From Escherichia phage vB_EcoM_R5505, in sequence record MK373786.1: a DNA stretch of 64,000 nt; one strand, written 5' to 3'. The notes below the pieces were generated by a model. That model was not told the DNA's origin. It saw nothing but the letters and a program-made list of their open reading frames with translations, and did no database searches. Positions 7,386 through 60,844 of this stretch are shown here, piece after piece (the stretch's first letter is position 1; each line of letters opens with the position of its first letter). Both the position numbers and the translations under genes were made by a program.

Positions 7386-7796
7386 TCAGCCTCTATCAAC
7401 GATAGCATGAGTATGGGCATTTACGATTTGCCACCAGTCGAAACGATTGGAACCATAATCTGGTTTATTTTCATTTTCTTTAATGATATCACGCAGTTTA
7501 TCTTCTGTTTCAGCATACGCAATTAAATCATCATATCCGCCACAAGGATAATAATTATCACCTGCGAATAAAAGAAAATTTACCTTAGATGGATTTACGT
7601 AATAATGGTCTTTAGGATATTTAGTTCCTCTCCAATCAGTTACTTCAACATAACGGTAAGAAAATCCATTTTTACTTTCAATCCAACTCCACGCTTCAAA
7701 AGGAGTATTAAAAACTTTATCAGGTATTAAATTACCTTCAAAATGAGAAGGATTTGCATAATCCCCGGCATAAACATAATATTCGTTAATACTCAT
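7386..7796 (-). CDS. hypothetical protein, Tyr/Trp-rich (variable-region operon)
   Basis: 136-aa ORF, ATG start immediately after upstream stop; no motif recognised. Confidence 0.65.
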   Translation of the reverse strand: MSINEYYVYAGDYANPSHFEGNLIPDKVFNTPFEAWSWIESKNGFSYRYVEVTDWRGTKYPKDHYYVNPSKVNFLLFAGDNYYPCGGYDDLIAYAETEDKLRDIIKENENKPDYGSNRFDWWQIVNAHTHAIVDRG

Positions 7797-12743: not shown

Positions 12744-14454
12744 TAACCTTAATTGGTTTGTTGGTGTTGTTGAAGATAGAATGGACCCATTAAAATTAGG
12801 TCGTGTTCGTGTTCGTGTGGTTGGTTTGCATCCACCCCAAAGAGCACAAGGTGATGTAATGGGTATTCCAACTGAAAAATTACCATGGATGTCAGTTATT
12901 CAACCTATAACTTCTGCAGCGATGTCAGGAATTGGAGGTTCTGTTACAGGGCCAGTAGAAGGAACTAGAGTTTATGGTCATTTTTTAGACAAATGGAAAA
13001 CTAACGGAATTGTCCTTGGCACATATGGTGGAATAGTTCGCGAAAAACCGAATAGACTTGAAGGATTTTCTGACCCAACTGGGCAGTATCCTAGACGTTT
13101 AGGAAATGATACGAACGTATTAAACCAAGGCGGAGAAGTAGGATATGATTCGTCTTCTAATATTATCCAAGATAGTAATCTAGACACTGCGATAAATCCC
13201 GATGATAGACCACTATCAGAGATTCCAACCGATGATAATCCAAATATGTCAATGGCTGAAATGCTTCGCCGTGATGAAGGATTAAGATTAAAAGTTTATT
13301 GGGATACCGAAGGATATCCGACAATTGGTATTGGTCATCTTATCATGAAGCAGCCAGTTCGTGATATGGCTCAAATTAATAAAGTTTTATCAAAACAAGT
13401 TGGTCGTGAAATTACAGGAAATCCAGGTTCTATTACAATGGAAGAGGCGACGACTTTATTTGAGCGTGATTTGGCTGATATGCAACGTGACATTAAATCG
13501 CATTCTAAAGTAGGACCAGTCTGGCAAGCTGTTAACCGTTCTCGTCAAATGGCATTAGAAAATATGGCATTTCAGATGGGTGTTGGTGGTGTAGCTAAAT
13601 TTAACACAATGTTAACTGCTATGTTAGCCGGAGATTGGGAAAAAGCATATAAAGCTGGTCGTGATTCATTGTGGTATCAACAAACAAAAGGCCGTGCATC
13701 CCGTGTTACCATGATTATTCTTACGGGAAATTTGGAATCATATGGTGTTGAAGTGAAAACCCCAGCTAGGTCTCTATCAGCAATGGCTGCTACTGTAGCT
13801 AAATCTTCTGACCCTGCTGATCCTCCTATTCCAAATGACTCGAGAATTTTATTCAAAGAACCAGTTTCTTCATATAAAGGTGAGTATCCTTATGTGCATA
13901 CAATGGAAACTGAAAGCGGACATATTCAGGAATTTGATGATACCCCTGGGCAAGAACGATACAGATTAGTTCATCCAACTGGAACTTATGAAGAAGTATC
14001 ACCGTCAGGAAGAAGAACAAGAAAAACTGTTGATAATTTGTATGATATAACCAACGCTGATGGTAATTTTTTGGTAGCCGGTGATAAAAAGACTAACGTC
14101 GGTGGTTCAGAAATTTATTATAACATGGATAATCGTCTTCACCAAATAGATGGAAGCAATACAATATTTGTACGTGGCGATGAAACTAAGACGGTTGAAG
14201 GTAATGGAACTATCCTAGTCAAAGGTAATGTTACTATTGTAGTTGAAGGCAATGCTGACATTACAGTTAAAGGAGATGCTACCACTTTAGTTGAAGGTAA
14301 TCAAACTAATACAGTAAATGGAAATCTTTCTTGGAAAGTTGCTGGGACAGTTGATTGGGACGTTGGCGGTGATTGGACAGAAAAAATGGCATCTATGAGT
14401 TCTATTTCATCTGGTCAATACACAATTGATGGATCGAGGATTGACATTGGCTAA
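12727..14454 (+). CDS. 5: baseplate central spike with lysozyme domain gp5
   Basis: 575-aa ORF; lysozyme domain ...EGYPTIGIGHLIMKQ... similar to gene e product; C-terminal beta-helix repeats VEGNGTILVKGNVTIVVEGNADITVKGDATTLVEGN. Confidence 0.95.
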   Translation: MEMISNNLNWFVGVVEDRMDPLKLGRVRVRVVGLHPPQRAQGDVMGIPTEKLPWMSVIQPITSAAMSGIGGSVTGPVEGTRVYGHFLDKWKTNGIVLGTYGGIVREKPNRLEGFSDPTGQYPRRLGNDTNVLNQGGEVGYDSSSNIIQDSNLDTAINPDDRPLSEIPTDDNPNMSMAEMLRRDEGLRLKVYWDTEGYPTIGIGHLIMKQPVRDMAQINKVLSKQVGREITGNPGSITMEEATTLFERDLADMQRDIKSHSKVGPVWQAVNRSRQMALENMAFQMGVGGVAKFNTMLTAMLAGDWEKAYKAGRDSLWYQQTKGRASRVTMIILTGNLESYGVEVKTPARSLSAMAATVAKSSDPADPPIPNDSRILFKEPVSSYKGEYPYVHTMETESGHIQEFDDTPGQERYRLVHPTGTYEEVSPSGRRTRKTVDNLYDITNADGNFLVAGDKKTNVGGSEIYYNMDNRLHQIDGSNTIFVRGDETKTVEGNGTILVKGNVTIVVEGNADITVKGDATTLVEGNQTNTVNGNLSWKVAGTVDWDVGGDWTEKMASMSSISSGQYTIDGSRIDIG

Positions 14455-21426: not shown

Positions 21427-22293
21427 ATGTTCATTCAAGAACCAAAGAAATTGATTGATACCGGCGAAATTGGTAACGCTTCTACTGGTGATATCTTATT
21501 CGACGGTGGTAATAAAATTAATAGTGATTTTAACGCAATTTATAATGCGTTTGGCGATCAGCGTAAAATGGCAGTAGCAAATGGCACTGGAGCAGATGGT
21601 CAAATTATCCATGCTACTGGATATTATCAAAAACACTCTATTACAGAGTACGCAACTCCAGTGAAAGTTGGCACTAGACATGATATTGATACCTCTACTG
21701 TAGGTGTTAAAGTTATCATTGAAAGAGGCGAACTCGGCGACTGTGTTGAATTTATTAACTCAAATGGATCAATATCAGTTACTAATCCTTTAACAATTCA
21801 AGCTATTGATTCAATTAAAGGTGTTTCGGGTAATTTAGTAGTAACTAGCCCATATAGTAAAGTTACTTTACGCTGTATTTCATCTGATAATTCTACTTCG
21901 GTTTGGAATTATTCTATTGAAAGTATGTTTGGACAAAAGGAATCACCAGCTGAAGGTACATGGAATATTTCTACATCTGGATCAGTTGACATTCCATTAT
22001 TTCATCGCACTGAATACAATATGGCTAAATTGCTAGTTACGTGCCAATCGGTAGATGGAAGAAAAATTAAAACAGCAGAAATAAATATTCTTGTGGATAC
22101 TGTTAATTCAGAGGTAATTTCTTCTGAATATGCTGTCATGCGAGTTGGGAATGAAACCGAAGAAGACGAAATCGCTAATATTGCATTTAGTATTAAAGAA
22201 AACTATGTAACGGCGACTATAAGTTCTTCAACTGTCGGTATGAGAGCAGCAGTTAAAGTTATCGCTACGCAGAAAATCGGGGTGGCTCAATAA
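21427..22293 (+). CDS. 9: baseplate long-tail-fibre socket protein gp9
   Basis: 288-aa ORF; size and synteny as T4 gp9. Confidence 0.9.
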   Translation: MFIQEPKKLIDTGEIGNASTGDILFDGGNKINSDFNAIYNAFGDQRKMAVANGTGADGQIIHATGYYQKHSITEYATPVKVGTRHDIDTSTVGVKVIIERGELGDCVEFINSNGSISVTNPLTIQAIDSIKGVSGNLVVTSPYSKVTLRCISSDNSTSVWNYSIESMFGQKESPAEGTWNISTSGSVDIPLFHRTEYNMAKLLVTCQSVDGRKIKTAEINILVDTVNSEVISSEYAVMRVGNETEEDEIANIAFSIKENYVTATISSSTVGMRAAVKVIATQKIGVAQ

Positions 22294-24156
22294 TGAAACA
22301 AAATATTAATATCGGTAATGTTGTAGATGATGGTACCGGTGACTACCTGCGTAAAGGTGGTATAAAAATAAATGAAAACTTTGATGAGCTTTATTATGAA
22401 CTCGGTGATGGTGATGTTCCATATTCAGCCGGTGCCTGGAAAACTTATAATGCTTCATCAGGACAAACATTAACAGCAGAATGGGGAAAATCATACGCTA
22501 TTAATACATCTTCTGGAAGAGTGACTATAAATCTTCCAAAGGGTACAGTTAATGATTACAACAAGGTAATTAGAGCTAGAGACGTATTTGCTACGTGGAA
22601 CGTCAACCCAGTTACACTAGTAGCTGCTTCCGGCGATACGATTAAAGGGTCTGCAGTACCAGTTGAAATTAATGTTCAATTCAGCGATTTAGAACTAGTG
22701 TATTGTGCCCCAGGACGTTGGGAATATGTCAAAAATAAACGATTTAGAACTAGTGTATTGTGCCCCAGGACGTTGGGAATATGTCAAAAATAAACAAATT
22801 GACAAAATTACCAGTTCAGACATTAGTAATGTAGCTCGTAAAGAATTTTTAGTCGAAGTCCAAGGGCAAACAGACTTTTTAGATGTTTTCCGTGGAACTA
22901 GTTATAATGTAAATAACATCAGAGTAAAACATCGTGGTAACGAATTGTATTACGGCGATGTGTTTAGCGAAAACAGCGATTTTGGCTCTCCGGGCGAAAA
23001 TGAAGGAGAACTAGTTCCTCTTGATGGATTTAATATTCGATTAAGACAGCCTTGTAATATTGGTGATACTGTTCAAATTGAAACATTTATGGATGGTGTA
23101 TCGCAGTGGAGAAGTTCATATACAAGACGTCAAATTAGATTGTTAGATTCAAAATTAACGTCAAAAACTTCTCTAGAAGGAAGTATTTACGTTGCTGATT
23201 TATCAACAATGAAATCAATTCCATTTTCTGCTTTTGGATTAATTCCAGGAGAACCTATTAATCCTAATTCTCTTGAGGTTCGTTTTAACGGGATTTTGCA
23301 GGAATTGGCTGGAACAGTTGGAATGCCATTATTTCATTGTGTTGGTGCCGATTCAGACGATGAAGTAGAATGCTCTGTTTTAGGTGGAACTTGGGAACAA
23401 TCTCATACCGATTATTCAGTTGAAACTGATGAAAACGGCATACCGGAAATTTTACATTTCGATAGAGTATTTGAGCATGGTGACATTATCAATATCACCT
23501 GGTTTAATAATGATTTGGGTACATTATTAACAAAAGATGAGATTATTGATGAAACTGACAATCTCTATGTATCGCAAGGACCAGGAGTAGATATTTCCGG
23601 TGATGTAAATTTAACAGACTTCGATAAAATTGGTTGGCCAAATGTAGAAGCAGTTCAATCTTATCAACGCGAATTTAATGCTGTTTCAAATATCTTTGAT
23701 ACGATTTATCCTATTGGAACTATATATGAAAACGCCGTTAATCCAAACAACCCTGTTACATATATGGGATTCGGCTCATGGAAATTATTTGGGCAAGGAA
23801 AAGTTTTAGTTGGATGGAATGAAGATATTTCGGACCCTAACTTTGCTCTAAATAACAACGATTTAGATTCGGGTGGAAATCCTTCACATACTGCAGGTGG
23901 AACAGGTGGTTCTACTTCTGTTACATTGGAAAATGCTAATCTTCCTGCAACTGAAACAGATGAAGAAGTTCTAATAGTTGATGAAAATGGATCAGTCATT
24001 GTTGGTGGGTGTCAATACGATCCAGATGAATCCGGTCCAATCTACACTAAATACCGTGAAGCTAAAGCATCTACTAACTCTACTCACACTCCGCCAACAT
24101 CAATAACTAACATTCAACCATATATTACAGTTTATCGTTGGATAAGGATTGCATAA
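22293..24156 (+). pseudogene. 10: baseplate wedge protein gp10, frameshifted by a 55-bp tandem duplication
   Basis: Frame from ATG 22293 stops at 22791-22793 after reading the second repeat copy out of frame; remaining ~455 codons continue in the +1 frame to 24156 (in-frame ATG at 22726); one copy removed gives a 602-codon ORF. Confidence 0.85.
22686..22795 (+). repeat. perfect 55-bp direct tandem duplication (2 copies)
   Basis: 22686-22740 and 22741-22795 identical: GATTTAGAACTAGTGTATTGTGCCCCAGGACGTTGGGAATATGTCAAAAATAAAC. Confidence 0.95.
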
Positions 24157-24815
24157 TGAGTTTACTTAATAATAAAGCGGGAGTTATTTCCCGCTTAGCC
24201 GATTTTCTTGGTTTTAGACCTAAAGCTGGTAATATAGATGTAATGAATCGCCAATCAGTTGGGTCAGTGACAATTTCTCAATTAGCGAAAGGATTTTATG
24301 AACCAAACGTAGAATCAGCTATTAATGACGTTCACAATTTTTCTATAAAAGACGTTGGTACAATTATTACTAATAAAACTGGTGTTTCTCCTGAGGGTGT
24401 TTCTCAAACTGATTATTGGGCATTTTCTGGAACTGTAACAGACGATTCTCTTCCTCCGGGTTCTCCCGTTACGGTATTAGTATTTGGTCTTCCAGTTTCA
24501 GCAACAACTGGAATGACGGCAATTGAGTTTGTTGCAAAAGTTCGTGTTGCCCTCCAAGAAGCTATTGCGTCATTTACTGCTATCAACTCATATAAAGACC
24601 ATCCAACAGATGGTAGTAAATTAGAAGTTACTTATTTAGATAATCAAAAACATGTATTAAGCACATATTCTACATATGGAATAACTATTTCACAGGAAAT
24701 TATTTCTGAGTCTAAACCTGGCTATGGTACATGGAATTTATTAGGCGCGCAAACTGTAACTTTAGATAATCAGCAGACTCCTACAGTATTTTATCATTTT
24801 GAGAGAACAGCATGA
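24156..24815 (+). CDS. 11: baseplate short-tail-fibre connector gp11
   Basis: ATG at 24156 overlaps gene 10 stop (TAATG); 219 aa [20 protein letters not shown]... Confidence 0.9.
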
Positions 24816-26395
24816 GTAATAATACATATCAACACGTTTCTAATGAATCTCGTTATGTAAAATTTGATCCTACCGATACGAATTTTCCACCAGAGATTAC
24901 TGATGTTCAGGCTGCTATAGCAGCCATTTCTCCTGCTGGCGTAAATGGAGTTCCTGATGCATCGTCAACAACAAAGGGAATTTTATTTCTTGCCACTGAA
25001 CAGGAAGTTATAGATGGAACTAATAATACCAAAGCAGTTACACCAGCAACGTTGGCAACAAGATTATCATATCCAAACGCAACTGAAACTGTTTACGGAT
25101 TAACAAGATATTCAACCAATGATGAAGCCATTGCCGGAGTTAATAATGAATCTTCTATAACTCCAGCTAAATTTACTGTTGCTCTTAATAATGCGTTTGA
25201 AACACGAGTTTCAACTGAATCCTCGAATGGTGTTATTAAAATTTCATCTCTACCGCAAGCATTAGCTGGTGCAGATGATACTACTGCAATGACTCCATTA
25301 AAAACACAGCAGTTAGCTATTAAATTAATTGCGCAAATTGCTCCTTCTGAAACCACAGCTACTGAATCGGACCAAGGTGTTGTTCAATTAGCAACAGTAG
25401 CGCAGGTTCGTCAGGGAACTTTAAGAGAAGGCTATGCAATTTCTCCTTATACGTTTATGAATTCATCTGCTACTGAAGAATATAAAGGCGTAATTAAATT
25501 AGGAACACAATCAGAAGTTAACTCGAATAATGCTTCTGTTGCGGTTACTGGCGCAACTCTTAATGGTCGTGGTTCTACAACGTCAATGAGAGGCGTAGTT
25601 AAATTAACTACAACTGCCGGCTCACAGAGTGGAGGTGATGCTTCATCAGCACTAGCTTGGAATGCTGATGTTATCCACCAAAGAGGTGGTCAAACGATTA
25701 ATGGAACACTTCGCATTAATAATACGCTCACGATAGCTTCAGGTGGAGCAAATATTACCGGAACAGTTAACATGACCGGTGGTTATATTCAAGGTAAGCG
25801 TGTCGTAACACAAAATGAAATTGATAGAACCATTCCTGTCGGAGCTATTATGATGTGGGCCGCTGATAGTCTTCCTAGTGATGCTTGGCGTTTTTGCCAT
25901 GGCGGAACTGTTTCAGCATCAGATTGTCCATTATATGCTTCTAGAATTGGAACAAGATACGGCGGAAGTTCATCAAATCCTGGATTACCTGATATGCGCG
26001 GTCTTTTTGTTCGCGGCTCTGGTCGTGGCTCTCACTTAACAAATCCAAATGTTAATGGTAATGACCAGTTTGGTAAGCCTAGATTAGGTGTAGGTTGTAC
26101 TGGTGGATATGTTGGTGAAGTACAAAAACAACAGATGTCTTATCATAAACATGCGGGCGGATTTGGTGAGCATGATGATTCTGGGGCATTCGGTAATACC
26201 CGTAGATCAAATTTTGTTGGTACACGCAAAGGACTTGACTGGGATAACCGTTCATACTTCACCAATGACGGATATGAAATTGACCCGGCATCACAACGAA
26301 ATTCCAAATATACATTAAATCGTCCTGAATTAATTGGAAATGAAACACGTCCATGGAACATTTCTTTAAACTACATAATTAAGGTAAAAGAATGA
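24812..26395 (+). CDS. 12: short tail fibre gp12
   Basis: 527-aa ORF; Gly/Thr/Ala-rich fibre repeats; size and synteny as T4 gp12. Confidence 0.9.
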
Positions 26396-34778: not shown

Positions 34779-34785
34779 TTGATAT

Positions 34786-34799
34786 GGGGCTTCGGCCCC
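34786..34799 (+). terminator. stem-loop GGGGCTTCGGCCCC after gene 18
   Basis: 5-bp GC stem with TTCG loop 8 nt after gene 18 stop; the in-frame ATG at 34784 lies inside this hairpin. Confidence 0.5.
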
Positions 34800-34816
34800 T
34801 ATTCTCGAGGAATCAA

Positions 34817-35434
34817 GTGATTATTTCTAAATTTATTAAAGTGAAAATTGTACCATCAAATTTTAAACATTATCAGTCAAAGGGTTATAAATTAACACCT
34901 CTTGGAGCGGTTAAACACGGATTTAGGTATTATGAAATTGATGTTAAAGTTGAAGACATTAAAGGTAGTACCGCGTATGTAAAATGCCGTTGCGATAAAT
35001 GTGGAATTGAATATAACCAACGCATTGGAAGAAACACTGATATTTGTCGTGATTGCCGTCATAAAGATAAAATGCGTAATAATTCATATGGTTCCGCGAA
35101 TAAAGGAAAAACAGTAGAATGTATGCATGGCGCAAATCATCCAAGATGGAACCCAAATAAATCTGAAATGCGTGAATATATTTCATTGGTATATAAAGAA
35201 ACTCGTAAGCATAAGAAAATTTGGTCAAAATGGCCAAATGCTGATAAAATAGGAGTGTGCGGTACAAAAGGTGCTTACCAACTTGATCATAAGATATCTA
35301 TCAAATACGGTTTTGATAATTTAATTCCTGCTAAAATAATTGGCGGTATTAATAATTTAGAAATAATCACTTGGGAATCTAACCGAGAAAAATCCAAAAG
35401 AAATAGTGTAGATCTTTGGGATTTACTAGAATGA
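34817..35434 (+). CDS. free-standing HNH-family endonuclease (putative homing endonuclease) inserted between genes 18 and 19
   Basis: Cys4 zinc-finger region (CRCDKCG...CRDCRH) plus HNH-like core (GAYQLDHKISIKYG...NLEIITWESNREK); likely GTG start at 34817 preceded by SD GAGGA; ORF track starts at ATG 34784. Confidence 0.7.
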   Translation: MIISKFIKVKIVPSNFKHYQSKGYKLTPLGAVKHGFRYYEIDVKVEDIKGSTAYVKCRCDKCGIEYNQRIGRNTDICRDCRHKDKMRNNSYGSANKGKTVECMHGANHPRWNPNKSEMREYISLVYKETRKHKKIWSKWPNADKIGVCGTKGAYQLDHKISIKYGFDNLIPAKIIGGINNLEIITWESNREKSKRNSVDLWDLLE

Positions 35435-39032: not shown

Positions 39033-39842
39033 ATGCTTAAAGAACAACTGATTGCCGAAGCGCAGAAAATTGATGCTTCCGTTGCTCTTGATAGTATTTT
39101 CGAATCAGTTAATATTTCTCCGGAAGCAAAAGAAACTTTCGGCACTGTATTCGAAGCTACCGTCAAGCAGCACGCCGTTAAATTAGCTGAATCTCATATC
39201 GCTAAAATTGCTGAAAAAGCAGAAGAAGAAGTAGAAAAAAATAAAGAAGAAGCAGAAGAAAAAGCTGAGAAGAAAATCGCTGAGCAAGCTTCTAAATTCC
39301 TTGACCATCTTGCAAAAGAATGGCTCACTGAAAATAAATTAGCAGTAGATAAAGGCATCAAAGCCGAACTGTTTGAATCCATGCTTGGTGGATTGAAAGA
39401 GCTCTTCGTTGAACACAACGTTGTTGTTCCAGAAGAATCAGTTGATGTTGTAGCTGAAATGGAAGAAGAACTGCAAGAACATAAAGAAGAATCAGCTCGT
39501 CTGTTCGAAGAACTCAATAAGCGTGACGCATATATCAATTATGTGCAGCGTGAAGTGGCATTGAGCGAAAGTACTAAAGATCTGACTGAGTCTCAAAAAG
39601 AAAAAGTCTCTGCTCTGGTCGAAGGTATGGATTATTCAGATGCATTCTCAAGTAAATTGAGTGCAATCGTAGAAATGGTGAAGAAATCTAATAAAGATGA
39701 AAGCACTATTACTGAGAGTATAAATACTCCTGATACTGAAGCAGCCGGACTGAATTTCGTCACTGAAGCTGTAGAAGATAAATCTGCACAAGGTGCAGAA
39801 GATATTGTAAGTGTATATGCGAAAGTCGCATCTCGTTTCTAA
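39033..39842 (+). CDS. 22: prohead scaffold protein gp22
   Basis: 269-aa ORF, Glu/Lys/Ala-rich coiled coil; size and synteny. Confidence 0.9.
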   Translation: MLKEQLIAEAQKIDASVALDSIFESVNISPEAKETFGTVFEATVKQHAVKLAESHIAKIAEKAEEEVEKNKEEAEEKAEKKIAEQASKFLDHLAKEWLTENKLAVDKGIKAELFESMLGGLKELFVEHNVVVPEESVDVVAEMEEELQEHKEESARLFEELNKRDAYINYVQREVALSESTKDLTESQKEKVSALVEGMDYSDAFSSKLSAIVEMVKKSNKDESTITESINTPDTEAAGLNFVTEAVEDKSAQGAEDIVSVYAKVASRF

Positions 39843-56695: not shown

Positions 56696-58753
56696 CTACA
56701 TCTTGAACTTTTTAGACATTCCGTTGATGTTAACCAAAGAAGCCAAGATTTGAGAAACTTCGTTTTCCTCTTCTTTTGATTCTTCTACAAGGAATTGATT
56801 AAATCCAGCCATTGGACGAACTTCACCAGTTTCCATTAAATGGTCGCCATCATATACTGATTCTTCTAATTGTTCAGAAGGAGGAACGATTGTACCTTCG
56901 ATTAGATACTTGTTATAAGCAGTTTCTTTCATAAAGTACGTACTTACTTTATTAATCTTCAGTAAAATTCCACGCGGTAGAATAACTTCAGCTTCTGATG
57001 GAAATCCTGATAAATGACCTGGAACGATAACTTTGATTCGCTCAGCTCCTTTAATTACCATACCCACGCTAGTTTCAGCATCTTCAATGGCATATGTAGA
57101 ATGACTACCCATATGCATTAAATCTTCTGCATCAACGGAACCTTCTCCTTCGCCAGAAAATACTGCGCCGGAATCATCTAGAGCCATATAGTTTTTACCA
57201 TGCTCACCGAAGATATTTGGTTTAAGTGATGTCGATACGAAGTTCTTGAAATAGAACATTTTGTTTTCAATGTTATGACGCAAAGTTTTAAAGGTAACTT
57301 CTTGTCCACGGTAAAGTGTAGTTCCTGGAGGAAGAACTGATCCTTTGGCAAAGGCAGAATCCAACGTCTCGATGTGCTTAATAGCTCGTTCCATATATTC
57401 TTCACGGGTAGAATCTGGTTTACCCAAAAGGAACGAGTTCATTTCAACATATGAATCTGCACAATAATCTTCAATTACATCAGATTCAGCTTGGGTTAAT
57501 CCTTTTGGAGTTACTTCGGTGCTTGCGTATTCATATGCCTGGGCAGCAGATTCATTAATCAATTTATAAATGCCATTCATGACAAATTGAATAATAGCTG
57601 TCTTTTCATCTGGCGTAGCTTTAGAACCTTTAACTAAATCATTAATAATTTTCTTAATAACATCAAAGCTATTAGAAATATTAATGTCAGCAAGATCGCT
57701 TAAAATTTTATCAGTTTTATAATCAAAGAATTCTTTATTCTTTAAATATTCTTGAGAACCTTGATATGTTATATCGCTCTGCAACTTGATAGATGGATCA
57801 CGTAAACGTGCATGGGCTAATGCAATATGATTTCGGAAGTTTTCTAGTTCATAATCGTTAGATTTAAAACGAGAAGCACTTCTCATACCACCGATAGCTC
57901 CTTTGCTAAAGTTTGAACCAATCTGGATAACCCCGGAGTTCATCGGACCTTCTGCTTTATATACCGGAACTTTAGATTCAAACTCTTGATATTTCTTGGC
58001 AGCGAAGCTATCACCCTGAAGTGAAGCATCAACAGTAGAATATTGAGCTTGTGCTGCTAATCGACGACTAATTTTAGTTTTCTGAATAACAGCTTGATCA
58101 GTGCGCTTATCATTTTCTAAAGCAATAGAAGCAGCAACAGCGACAGCTTTAGGAACAGCATTACCTGTTTTAACGTCTACATAAACATCACCAACCTTTG
58201 ATTCAACTTTTGTGAATAACTCAGTTGAAATAGGAGGTACACCTGGAATGTCTTCTAAATTGGCATTTTTACGGTAAACCATAATATATGCATACTTTTT
58301 ATCATAGTCCCAGATTTCCTTTAAAAGAACATATCGACCTGCTCCTTTAGTACGTACTAAACGGTCAGCAATAACTTGCATTTGACGAGCTGCGCCATTT
58401 GTTTTACTCTTTAGTACACGGAATAAGCACGCGTCAATTTTGTACTGCTTCATTGTTTGAAGAGCAGTATCAAAAACAGCATTAATGACGCCAATTGGAT
58501 TTCCACCCAAGTTTCTAAGCTTAACCAGCGATAATTTCTCGTTGACACCTATCATTACGATATGCATCATTTTATCGCCTGGTTTAACGTTTTTATTTGT
58601 ATCACCACCAGAGGTGTATGTACAAAATCTAAATCCAGGAAGAACGCTTTCTTCACCGGCTTGAATAGCAAAAATTTGAGGTATTTTATGCTTAGGATTT
58701 AAGTTAACAACCGGCGCCGAAGCGCCGTCAAATAATTCTGTAATAAGTTCCAT
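56696..58753 (-). CDS. Alt-family ADP-ribosyltransferase paralog (occupies the T4 alt.-2/alt.-1 position)
   Basis: 685-aa ORF MELITELFDGASAPV...; R / STS / E-x-E motifs (LYRGQ, FVSTSL, SEAEVILPRG); N-terminal ~230 aa ~65% identical to downstream alt. Confidence 0.8.
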   Translation of the reverse strand: MELITELFDGASAPVVNLNPKHKIPQIFAIQAGEESVLPGFRFCTYTSGGDTNKNVKPGDKMMHIVMIGVNEKLSLVKLRNLGGNPIGVINAVFDTALQTMKQYKIDACLFRVLKSKTNGAARQMQVIADRLVRTKGAGRYVLLKEIWDYDKKYAYIMVYRKNANLEDIPGVPPISTELFTKVESKVGDVYVDVKTGNAVPKAVAVAASIALENDKRTDQAVIQKTKISRRLAAQAQYSTVDASLQGDSFAAKKYQEFESKVPVYKAEGPMNSGVIQIGSNFSKGAIGGMRSASRFKSNDYELENFRNHIALAHARLRDPSIKLQSDITYQGSQEYLKNKEFFDYKTDKILSDLADINISNSFDVIKKIINDLVKGSKATPDEKTAIIQFVMNGIYKLINESAAQAYEYASTEVTPKGLTQAESDVIEDYCADSYVEMNSFLLGKPDSTREEYMERAIKHIETLDSAFAKGSVLPPGTTLYRGQEVTFKTLRHNIENKMFYFKNFVSTSLKPNIFGEHGKNYMALDDSGAVFSGEGEGSVDAEDLMHMGSHSTYAIEDAETSVGMVIKGAERIKVIVPGHLSGFPSEAEVILPRGILLKINKVSTYFMKETAYNKYLIEGTIVPPSEQLEESVYDGDHLMETGEVRPMAGFNQFLVEESKEEENEVSQILASLVNINGMSKKFKM

Positions 58754-58756
58754 GAT

Positions 58757-60844
58757 TTATCCTTGAACGAACTTGTAAGGCATGTTTGTAATATCTATGC
58801 AAGACGCAATAATTCCAAGAGATGATTCTACTTTCTGTTTAACATTTGATGAAACAAATGATGCAAAGTCAACTCTATCTTCTATATCACCTGTCATTGC
58901 AACTACTTCGCCGGTTTCCATTAAACGGTCACCGTCATAAATTACCGATTCGGTGAGTTCTTCTGTGGTCATAACTTCAGCTTGAATGAGTTTTGTATTA
59001 TTAGACGTGGTTCCGTCATTATTAGAAGCATCAGTTATTTTATTAACTTTAACCATCAATCCGCGCGGTAGAATAACTTCAGCTTCTGTTGCTATTCCTA
59101 GACTTCCTGGATATACAACATTAACTTTATGTGCGCCGTCAATTGCCCATCCTATTTGAACTTTAACGTATTCAGGATTTTCTTTATACGCTCTTATTTC
59201 GTTTGGATTAATAGTTATTCCTTCTTCATTTTTATCAACTGTCAATTCATTACGAGCTTCTGGTTCTAAAAGACCAATACCAGCATGTGTAATTCCAAAA
59301 CGCCCAAAAATGATAGGAGTTAAAGAAGTAGATACAAAATTTCTGAAATAGAACACTTTATTTTTAACTAGCGCTTCGTATATAGGAGCAGTCATACTTT
59401 GAGCACGATAAACTGTAATGCCTTCCGGTATGCGGTCACCATTTTCAAAAGCTGAATCTAAATTATTTATAGCAGATTCAATTTCTTTTTCACTCATTAC
59501 ATCATATCGTTCTGGATTGTAACGACCTAAAAGAAGATTATTGATGTCAGTATATCCTGAACCACAATACTCTCTAATGCCGCGCTTTTGTGATGGAGTA
59601 TATTTAGAACCATCACGAGCAATAGTAATATCAATCATTGGACCTGCACCAATTCCGGAAAAGCTATAAATCATTCGTTTGAGGAATTTAGTTTTTGCTG
59701 CGTTCCAGGAATTTTTAGTTATTTCTTCCCAGACTTCATCTGGTTGCCCTTTACGAGTTTTATTATGTTTATCAAGCCAATTATCTTTATATTCTTCAAA
59801 GAATTTATTAATAGCTGCTGCGTATTTCTCTAAACATTTTATTGAAGTAGTTGGTTCATTTTTTATCGCGTTAAAAATTACATCTTTAATTTTTTCGGAA
59901 ACTTCATCAACCTCACTTTTTGAAAAGAATTTATAGTCATAGTGAAGTTCATTCGCAGTTCCTTCGGCAATAATTTTTGCTGCCTTAGTTTTAGAAGCTA
60001 ATGAATTAATTCCAAGCTTCATTTCTTCTGCTTCGGGAATTAAAGGAGCGGTAGCGGGTTTATTGAAATTAGCTGCGGTAGATTCATACTTCTGAAATAA
60101 TTCACTTTCAAATCTAGAAGATTCCAATGACTGACTTTGTGCAATTGCTCTACGGGAAATTTTAACTTTAACGATTACAGCTTGATCAGAACGTTTATCA
60201 TTTTCTTGCGCAATAGATGCTGCAATTGCCTCATTTTTAGTTACTTGAGCTCCAGTATCTTTATTGATATAAACATCACCGACCTTCGATTCAACTTTAG
60301 TAAAGAGCTCGGTACTAATTTCCGGAACCCCTGGAATGTCTTCTAGTGATACATTTTTGCGATGTATAAGAATATATGCATACTTTTTATCGTAATCCCA
60401 GAGTTCCTTAAGAAGGACGTATCTGCCACCTGAACGACTACGGATAAGTCTATCAGCAATAACCTGAATTTGTCGAGCTTGACCAGCGGTTTTAGACTTA
60501 AGAATACGAAGCATACAGGCATCAATTTTATACTGACGCATTGTTTGCATTGCAACAGTAAAAACTGAATTGATATAATTAATTGGGCTTGAACCAAGAC
60601 CTTTCAATTTAGCAATTGAACCTTTAGCAGTTAATGTAAAAGGAACAATATGCATCATTTTATCGCCCATCTTTAAATCGCGATTAGTATCACCTCCAGA
60701 TGTATAGGTACATAAACGAAAGCCTGGTTGTTCAATTGCATCATCAACATGAACTGAAAAAATTTGTGGTATTTTCTTCTTTGGGTTTAAGTTTGTAATC
60801 GGAAGAGTAGTATCTTCGTCAAATAATTCTGTAATGAGTTCCAT
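58757..60844 (-). CDS. alt: Alt ADP-ribosyltransferase (packaged, injected with DNA)
   Basis: ATG at 60844 (second of tandem ATGs) gives MELITELFDEDTTLPITNL...; R / STS / E-x-E motifs (VYRAQ, FVSTSL, TEAEVILPRG). Confidence 0.85.
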   Translation of the reverse strand: MELITELFDEDTTLPITNLNPKKKIPQIFSVHVDDAIEQPGFRLCTYTSGGDTNRDLKMGDKMMHIVPFTLTAKGSIAKLKGLGSSPINYINSVFTVAMQTMRQYKIDACMLRILKSKTAGQARQIQVIADRLIRSRSGGRYVLLKELWDYDKKYAYILIHRKNVSLEDIPGVPEISTELFTKVESKVGDVYINKDTGAQVTKNEAIAASIAQENDKRSDQAVIVKVKISRRAIAQSQSLESSRFESELFQKYESTAANFNKPATAPLIPEAEEMKLGINSLASKTKAAKIIAEGTANELHYDYKFFSKSEVDEVSEKIKDVIFNAIKNEPTTSIKCLEKYAAAINKFFEEYKDNWLDKHNKTRKGQPDEVWEEITKNSWNAAKTKFLKRMIYSFSGIGAGPMIDITIARDGSKYTPSQKRGIREYCGSGYTDINNLLLGRYNPERYDVMSEKEIESAINNLDSAFENGDRIPEGITVYRAQSMTAPIYEALVKNKVFYFRNFVSTSLTPIIFGRFGITHAGIGLLEPEARNELTVDKNEEGITINPNEIRAYKENPEYVKVQIGWAIDGAHKVNVVYPGSLGIATEAEVILPRGLMVKVNKITDASNNDGTTSNNTKLIQAEVMTTEELTESVIYDGDRLMETGEVVAMTGDIEDRVDFASFVSSNVKQKVESSLGIIASCIDITNMPYKFVQG

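Follow-up and report, generated by a model that had tools for sequence, protein, structure and literature searches.

The window, by which we mean the whole 64-kb stretch of the Escherichia phage vB_EcoM_R5505 genome (MK373786; hereafter R5505) that was analysed, is of Tequatrovirus (T4-like) type and carries genes 9, 10, 11 and 12 in canonical order. The position of gene 10 between gene 9 and genes 11/12 is conserved, as compared with the annotation of sibling genomes. The features of this region, including the two copies of a 55-bp tandem duplication that lies within gene 10, are collected in Table 1.

Table 1. Features of the gene 9 to gene 12 region of R5505 (positions are those of the 64-kb window).
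Feature	Position	Strand	Remarks
Gene 9, baseplate wedge tail-fibre connector	21427..22293	+	intact; identical to T4 gp9; upstream synteny
Apparent 166-aa ORF, gp10 residues 1-149 plus 17 out-of-frame residues	22293..22793	+	QBQ79769.1 / UniRef100_A0A482N322
Copy 1, unit CGATTTAGAACTAGTGTATTGTGCCCCAGGACGTTGGGAATATGTCAAAAATAAA	22685..22739	+	genuine gene 10 sequence, codons ~131-149
Copy 2	22740..22794	+	identical to copy 1; proposed redundant k = 55 overlap
Remainder of gene 10, +1 frame	22726..24156	+	Pfam T4_gp9_10_C, Gp10_D3, Gp10_C
Gene 11, baseplate wedge subunit/tail pin	24156..24815	+	intact; ATG overlaps gene 10 stop, as in relatives
Gene 12, short tail fibre	24812..26395	+	intact

Analysis of the 64-kb window by Tandem Repeats Finder (TRF) revealed an array at 22685-22795 with a period of 55, 2.0 copies, 100% matches and 0 indels. 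The 55-mer CGATTTAGAACTAGTGTATTGTGCCCCAGGACGTTGGGAATATGTCAAAAATAAA occurred exactly twice in the window, at the two positions given in Table 1 and nowhere else, and 100 dinucleotide-preserving shuffles gave 0 matches. The two copies were string-identical, 55 nt each, and abutted directly, with the boundary reading AAATAAA on the copy 1 side and CGATTTAG on the copy 2 side. The period-55 match run in R5505 was 56 nt long, as the base after copy 2 (C) is identical to the first base of the unit. A preliminary description of this DNA had claimed two identical 55-nt copies, which the TRF result confirmed, and had placed them one base further on, at 22686-22740 and 22741-22795; this phase is equally valid because the extra C after copy 2 also matches. 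The array was the sole perfect tandem duplication with a period of 15-300 in the 64-kb window, and the 55-bp duplication was also the longest local exact repeat of the window. No adapters, N runs or long homopolymers were found in the window.

Two imperfect repeats were also seen in the window. Tandem repeats of 24/48 nt with 68-70% identity, at 14194-14325 (+), were located in gene 5 (baseplate hub/tail lysozyme) by alignment to the sibling genome KAW1E185, and presumably represent the octapeptide repeats already known from the C-terminal beta-helix of gp5. A GAA-rich imperfect repeat at 39213-39274 (+) was placed by alignment in the prohead core scaffold gene (gene 22 region), and is an ordinary acidic, Glu-rich stretch.

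Because 55 leaves a remainder of 1 on division by 3, gene 10 is frameshifted after codon 149. The gp10 frame that starts at 22293 misreads copy 2 and closes with 17 aberrant residues, RFRTSVLCPRTLGICQK, before a stop at 22791-22793, as had been described earlier and was borne out by the ORF translation. Pfam domain T4_gp9_10_N (PF07880) covers residues 2-146 of the resulting 166-aa N fragment. The downstream ORF opens with GTG at 22705 and has its first ATG at 22726 (MSKINDLELV...), inside copy 1; the Pfam accessions of the C fragment are PF23618, PF22670 and PF21939. After the junction, gp10 runs for 453 codons in the +1 frame to 24156; the earlier claim of a continuation in this frame to this end point held, and only its length, put at ~455 codons, was slightly off. 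Deletion of either copy restores gene 10, and removal of one copy yields an ORF of 1809 nt and 602 codons, in agreement with the single 602-codon ORF that the preliminary description had given.

Residues 1-602 of the restored ORF aligned with the T4 gp10 structures 5HX2 (5hx2_G) and 2FL8 (2fl8_A) with E = 0, and phage vB_Eco_EH2 has an intact gp10 that is 100% identical to the restored one. The N fragment has been deposited under the title 'putative baseplate wedge subunit and tail pin [Escherichia phage vB_EcoM_R5505]', on a contig of 167,317 bp. A search of the contig index returned no exact-product match for the 166-aa, 476-aa or 483-aa fragments.

The comparison set for gene 10 comprised 552 matching phage records, and spans were read among the matches listed. 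All of the full-length gene 10 matches listed span 1809 bp, except that of BYEP02 (1886 bp), which owes its extra length to a 77-bp duplication of its own where genes 10 and 11 meet, and whose gp10 CDS is intact at 1809 bp. The gp10 duplication of R5505 was not found among the matches listed of the 552 records with gene 10. Nor did the related genomes share the split or shift site, gene 10 being uninterrupted at 1809 bp among the matches listed, as is the BYEP02 CDS. With an 81-nt query for the junction, every match listed spanned 56 bp, that is, one copy, and the copy 1-copy 2 junction gave 0 matches in IMG/VR.

BYEP02 (OR757454) itself carries two perfect 77-bp tandem duplications, at ~77492-77645 and ~72801-72954, 4.7 kb apart. 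Genes 10 and 11 are pushed 77 bp apart by one of these, and the annotation nearby divides gene 8 into two, which suggests that several contig joins were left untrimmed in this 154.7-kb 'complete genome'.

R5505 was isolated from surface water by Korf et al. (2019, Viruses 11:454, PMC6563267) and sequenced to 133x coverage (Table S4 of that study). According to the methods, assembly of the Illumina genomes ("SPAdes ... (55kmer)") gave single contigs, and the circularly permuted T4-like genomes were re-arranged after assembly to match published relatives (PMC6563267). If the gene 10 duplication stems from this procedure, each T4-like genome from the same pipeline is predicted to carry one 55-bp repeat, at an arbitrary site, and three siblings were scanned whole by script. 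In the 168,756 bp of OE5505 (MK373785 = NC_054926.1), the only perfect tandem duplication was a 55-bp one at 7414-7524; because of it, the 'transcriptional regulator' gene found upstream of dexA (exonuclease A) is annotated as two CDSs, OE5505_00012 and OE5505_00013. The same regulator site is present as one copy in ~490 other phage records. D5505 (MK327929) likewise showed one perfect 55-bp tandem duplication in the whole record, at 150473-150583, which splits the long-tail-fibre gene 34 into the CDSs D5505_00252 and D5505_00253. The length of the D5505 record is 168,049 bp, as against 168,409 bp in Table S4 (PMC6563267).

The third sibling, KAW1E185 (MK373781 = NC_054922.1), carries a 55-nt segment twice in the intergenic region between rnh and gene 34 (146184-146415), at 146184-146238 and again at 146361-146415. 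Between these copies lie 56 T's followed by the 66-nt sequence CAAGCAGAAGACGGCATACGAGAT-CGATCGGT-GTCTCGTGGGCTCGGAGATGTGTATAAGAGACAG, the three parts of which are the Illumina P7 sequence, an i7 index and the Nextera read-2/ME adapter. In total, 177 nt of the 146184-146415 stretch are not phage sequence. Since an adapter can only mark the end of a read or contig, KAW1E185 shows directly how contig ends were joined without trimming.

The 55-bp signature was thus present in four of four genomes including R5505 (3/3 siblings), at four unrelated sites and once in each sibling scanned whole. It was the longest local exact repeat in each genome, all others being of 40 nt or less; for R5505 this refers to the 64-kb window. 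The match run was 56 nt rather than 55 in three of the four, namely R5505 (to 22795), OE5505 (to 7524) and D5505, in each of which the unit's first base recurs directly behind copy 2; this may be a coincidence (~0.27 per genome) or reflect the way in which the joins were produced.

Comparison with the siblings also showed differences elsewhere in the window. A 216-aa ORF at 34784-35434 (+) fills an insertion of ~650 bp between gene 18 (tail sheath) and gene 19 (tail tube), and this insertion is absent from KAW1E185 and OE5505. The ORF had no Pfam match and matched phrog_5104 (unknown function) with E = 2e-90; Cys-rich and HNH-like motifs were seen in it by eye, and from its sequence it is probably a free-standing homing endonuclease. 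Further, ~2 kb at 56997-59039 is present in R5505 and lacking in KAW1E185; two ORFs of ~2 kb lie side by side in OE5505 and D5505, versus one 'ADP-ribosyltransferase' (alt-like) gene in KAW1E185. The 56997-59039 difference is ordinary copy-number variation among relatives.

The repeat unit length in gene 10 equals the stated k (55), and the copies are perfect and directly adjacent. We consider it close to certain that the 55-bp tandem duplication is an artefact of assembly finishing and no feature of the phage. The assembly graph of circularly permuted T4-type DNA is a circle, and a de Bruijn graph assembler such as SPAdes puts out a circle in linear form, with the first k bases of the contig occurring again at its end; such an overlap of contig ends has been described by Philipson et al. 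(2018). The arbitrary contig break would have fallen inside gene 10, with copy 1 probably representing the end of the original SPAdes contig and copy 2 its start. On re-arrangement of the contig to T4 gene order, the old end would have been joined to the old start with the 55-base overlap kept, and this join, made presumably at the gene 10 site, would leave the arrangement X-X, a +1 frameshift and two annotated gene fragments. Any gene that holds such a join looks frameshifted because 55 mod 3 = 1. The sibling records start at rIIA, and the window maps to ~63-125 kb of KAW1E185, which puts the R5505 duplication ~86 kb into a rotated record. The duplication is internal, at this mapping of the window, and therefore fits rotation after assembly. 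The source study names no split between Illumina and PacBio by phage (PMC6563267), and we infer from the 55-bp signature and from the siblings that R5505 itself was among the Illumina/SPAdes genomes. An assembly or sequencing artefact was among the options raised in the preliminary description, and it is supported by the length equal to k, by the rotation and by 3/3 siblings, one of them with an Illumina adapter. In the real R5505 phage, gene 10 almost certainly holds the 55-nt unit once and encodes an uninterrupted gp10 of 602 aa.

Tandem duplications are a classical unstable type of mutation in T4. If a 55-bp tandem duplication had arisen spontaneously in gene 10 and this frameshift allele had become fixed or dominant in the lysate that was sequenced, the presence of the duplication in the deposited sequence would be accounted for; slipped or illegitimate recombination would also fit the 1-nt microhomology (C) seen where the copies meet. 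We nevertheless judge such an allele very unlikely. Its length would have to equal the assembler k exactly, and no mutational process explains 55-bp duplications at other loci in three siblings, with an adapter in one; moreover, no relative with the duplication was found among the matches listed or in IMG/VR. The phenotype of R5505 also speaks against a genuine allele. The T4 wedge assembles in the strict order gp11, gp10, gp7, gp8, gp6, gp53 and gp25, and comes to a halt when one of the products is lacking (Leiman et al. 2010, PMC3004832), which bears out the earlier statement that gp10 is needed for baseplate wedge assembly. With gp10 stopping at residue 149, no baseplates are therefore expected, yet R5505 formed plaques, was purified on CsCl and had, in TEM measurements, the form of a normal myovirus with normal, complete tails (PMC6563267). 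R5505 was also propagated normally (PMC6563267), which fits neither a phenotype of essential-gene loss nor growth on a suppressor or complementing host. The genuine frameshift allele that the preliminary description had offered as a second option thus found no support in the relatives among the matches listed, in the viability of the phage or in its normal tails. A minority variant, or a sequencing-library chimera present in a fraction of the molecules and taken up by the assembler, is extremely improbable as well. R5505 was sequenced to no more than 133x, from a lysate that by design was not clonal (Table S4, PMC6563267), but a random variant is not expected to have length k, nor to recur as 55 bp at different places in every sibling.

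It is exceedingly unlikely that the duplication is real in the R5505 stock and that gene 10 is expressed there as two polypeptides or by +1/-2 recoding; if true, this would show that the N-terminal (gp12-binding) domain of gp10 need not be supplied together with the remainder of the pin. A functional split gene, in which an N-terminal domain (1-149 plus the tail) and a C-terminal part of 476 aa are made through reinitiation at ATG 22726 or programmed frameshifting, has a vanishingly small probability, even though the break falls close to where the Pfam N-terminal domain (residues 2-146) ends and an in-frame ATG is available at 22726 in copy 1. No split was seen among the matches listed of ~550 related gene 10 records. 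The weak SD noted earlier for ATG 22726 was borne out by direct reading of the upstream GTTGGGAATATG, whose SD-like GGGA lies 2 nt before the ATG and is too closely spaced; the product from this ATG would start with 7 out-of-frame residues and repeat 16 residues of the N fragment. No obvious slippery heptamer was seen by direct reading at the junction AAATAAACGA. Every argument for an artefact applies here too, and the split gene with reinitiation proposed in the preliminary description is unsupported, given the unsplit relatives among the matches listed and the viability and normal tails of the phage. The frameshift allele, reinitiation, programmed frameshifting and the minority variant were all rejected on the basis of the length equal to k, the siblings, the relatives and the viability of the phage.

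An untrimmed overlap of k = 55, as we read the duplication, is without biological importance, and the value of the finding is curatorial. The deposited R5505 record contains a false frameshift in an essential structural gene, and the 166-aa artefact protein QBQ79769.1 / UniRef100_A0A482N322 has spread to protein databases (NCBI, UniRef). RefSeq species exemplars are affected as well, namely NC_054926.1 (OE5505), with a split gene, and NC_054922.1 (KAW1E185), with an adapter and a 56-nt poly-T. Correction is needed for the R5505 record, for the fragment proteins and for at least three sibling records. In rotated phage genomes, a length of 21, 33, 55, 77, 99 or 127 in a perfect tandem duplication offers a cheap general diagnostic, and genome scans should apply this k-length diagnostic before such duplications are called mutations.

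Among known systems, the R5505 duplication resembles the k-overlap of circular contigs written by SPAdes in being a perfect direct repeat, with the length of the largest k used, at an arbitrary break. That overlap is usually found at record ends, where it is recognised and trimmed, whereas in R5505 it is internal after rotation and mimics a frameshift of an essential gene. The 77-bp joins left untrimmed in BYEP02 are likewise perfect tandem duplications, and their length is another default SPAdes k (77); they come from another laboratory, with another k and with several joins, which suggests scaffolding of several contigs and not the closure of a single circle. T4 gp10 (PDB 2FKK, 2FL8, 5HX2, 5IV5) is matched by the restored R5505 ORF in its 602 aa and all four Pfam gp10 domains, and the R5505 gene has the same place between genes 9 and 11, whereas the deposited gene consists of fragments of 166 aa and ~476 aa in different frames. 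With the classical frameshift and tandem-duplication mutations of T4 (rII-type; Streisinger slippage), the R5505 duplication shares a tandem repeat whose length is not a multiple of 3, with a frameshift and an early stop as the result. Those mutations, however, are real, selectable and revertible, with mutant phenotypes, whereas the R5505 duplication matches software settings, recurs at unrelated loci of sibling assemblies and conflicts with the viability of the phage.
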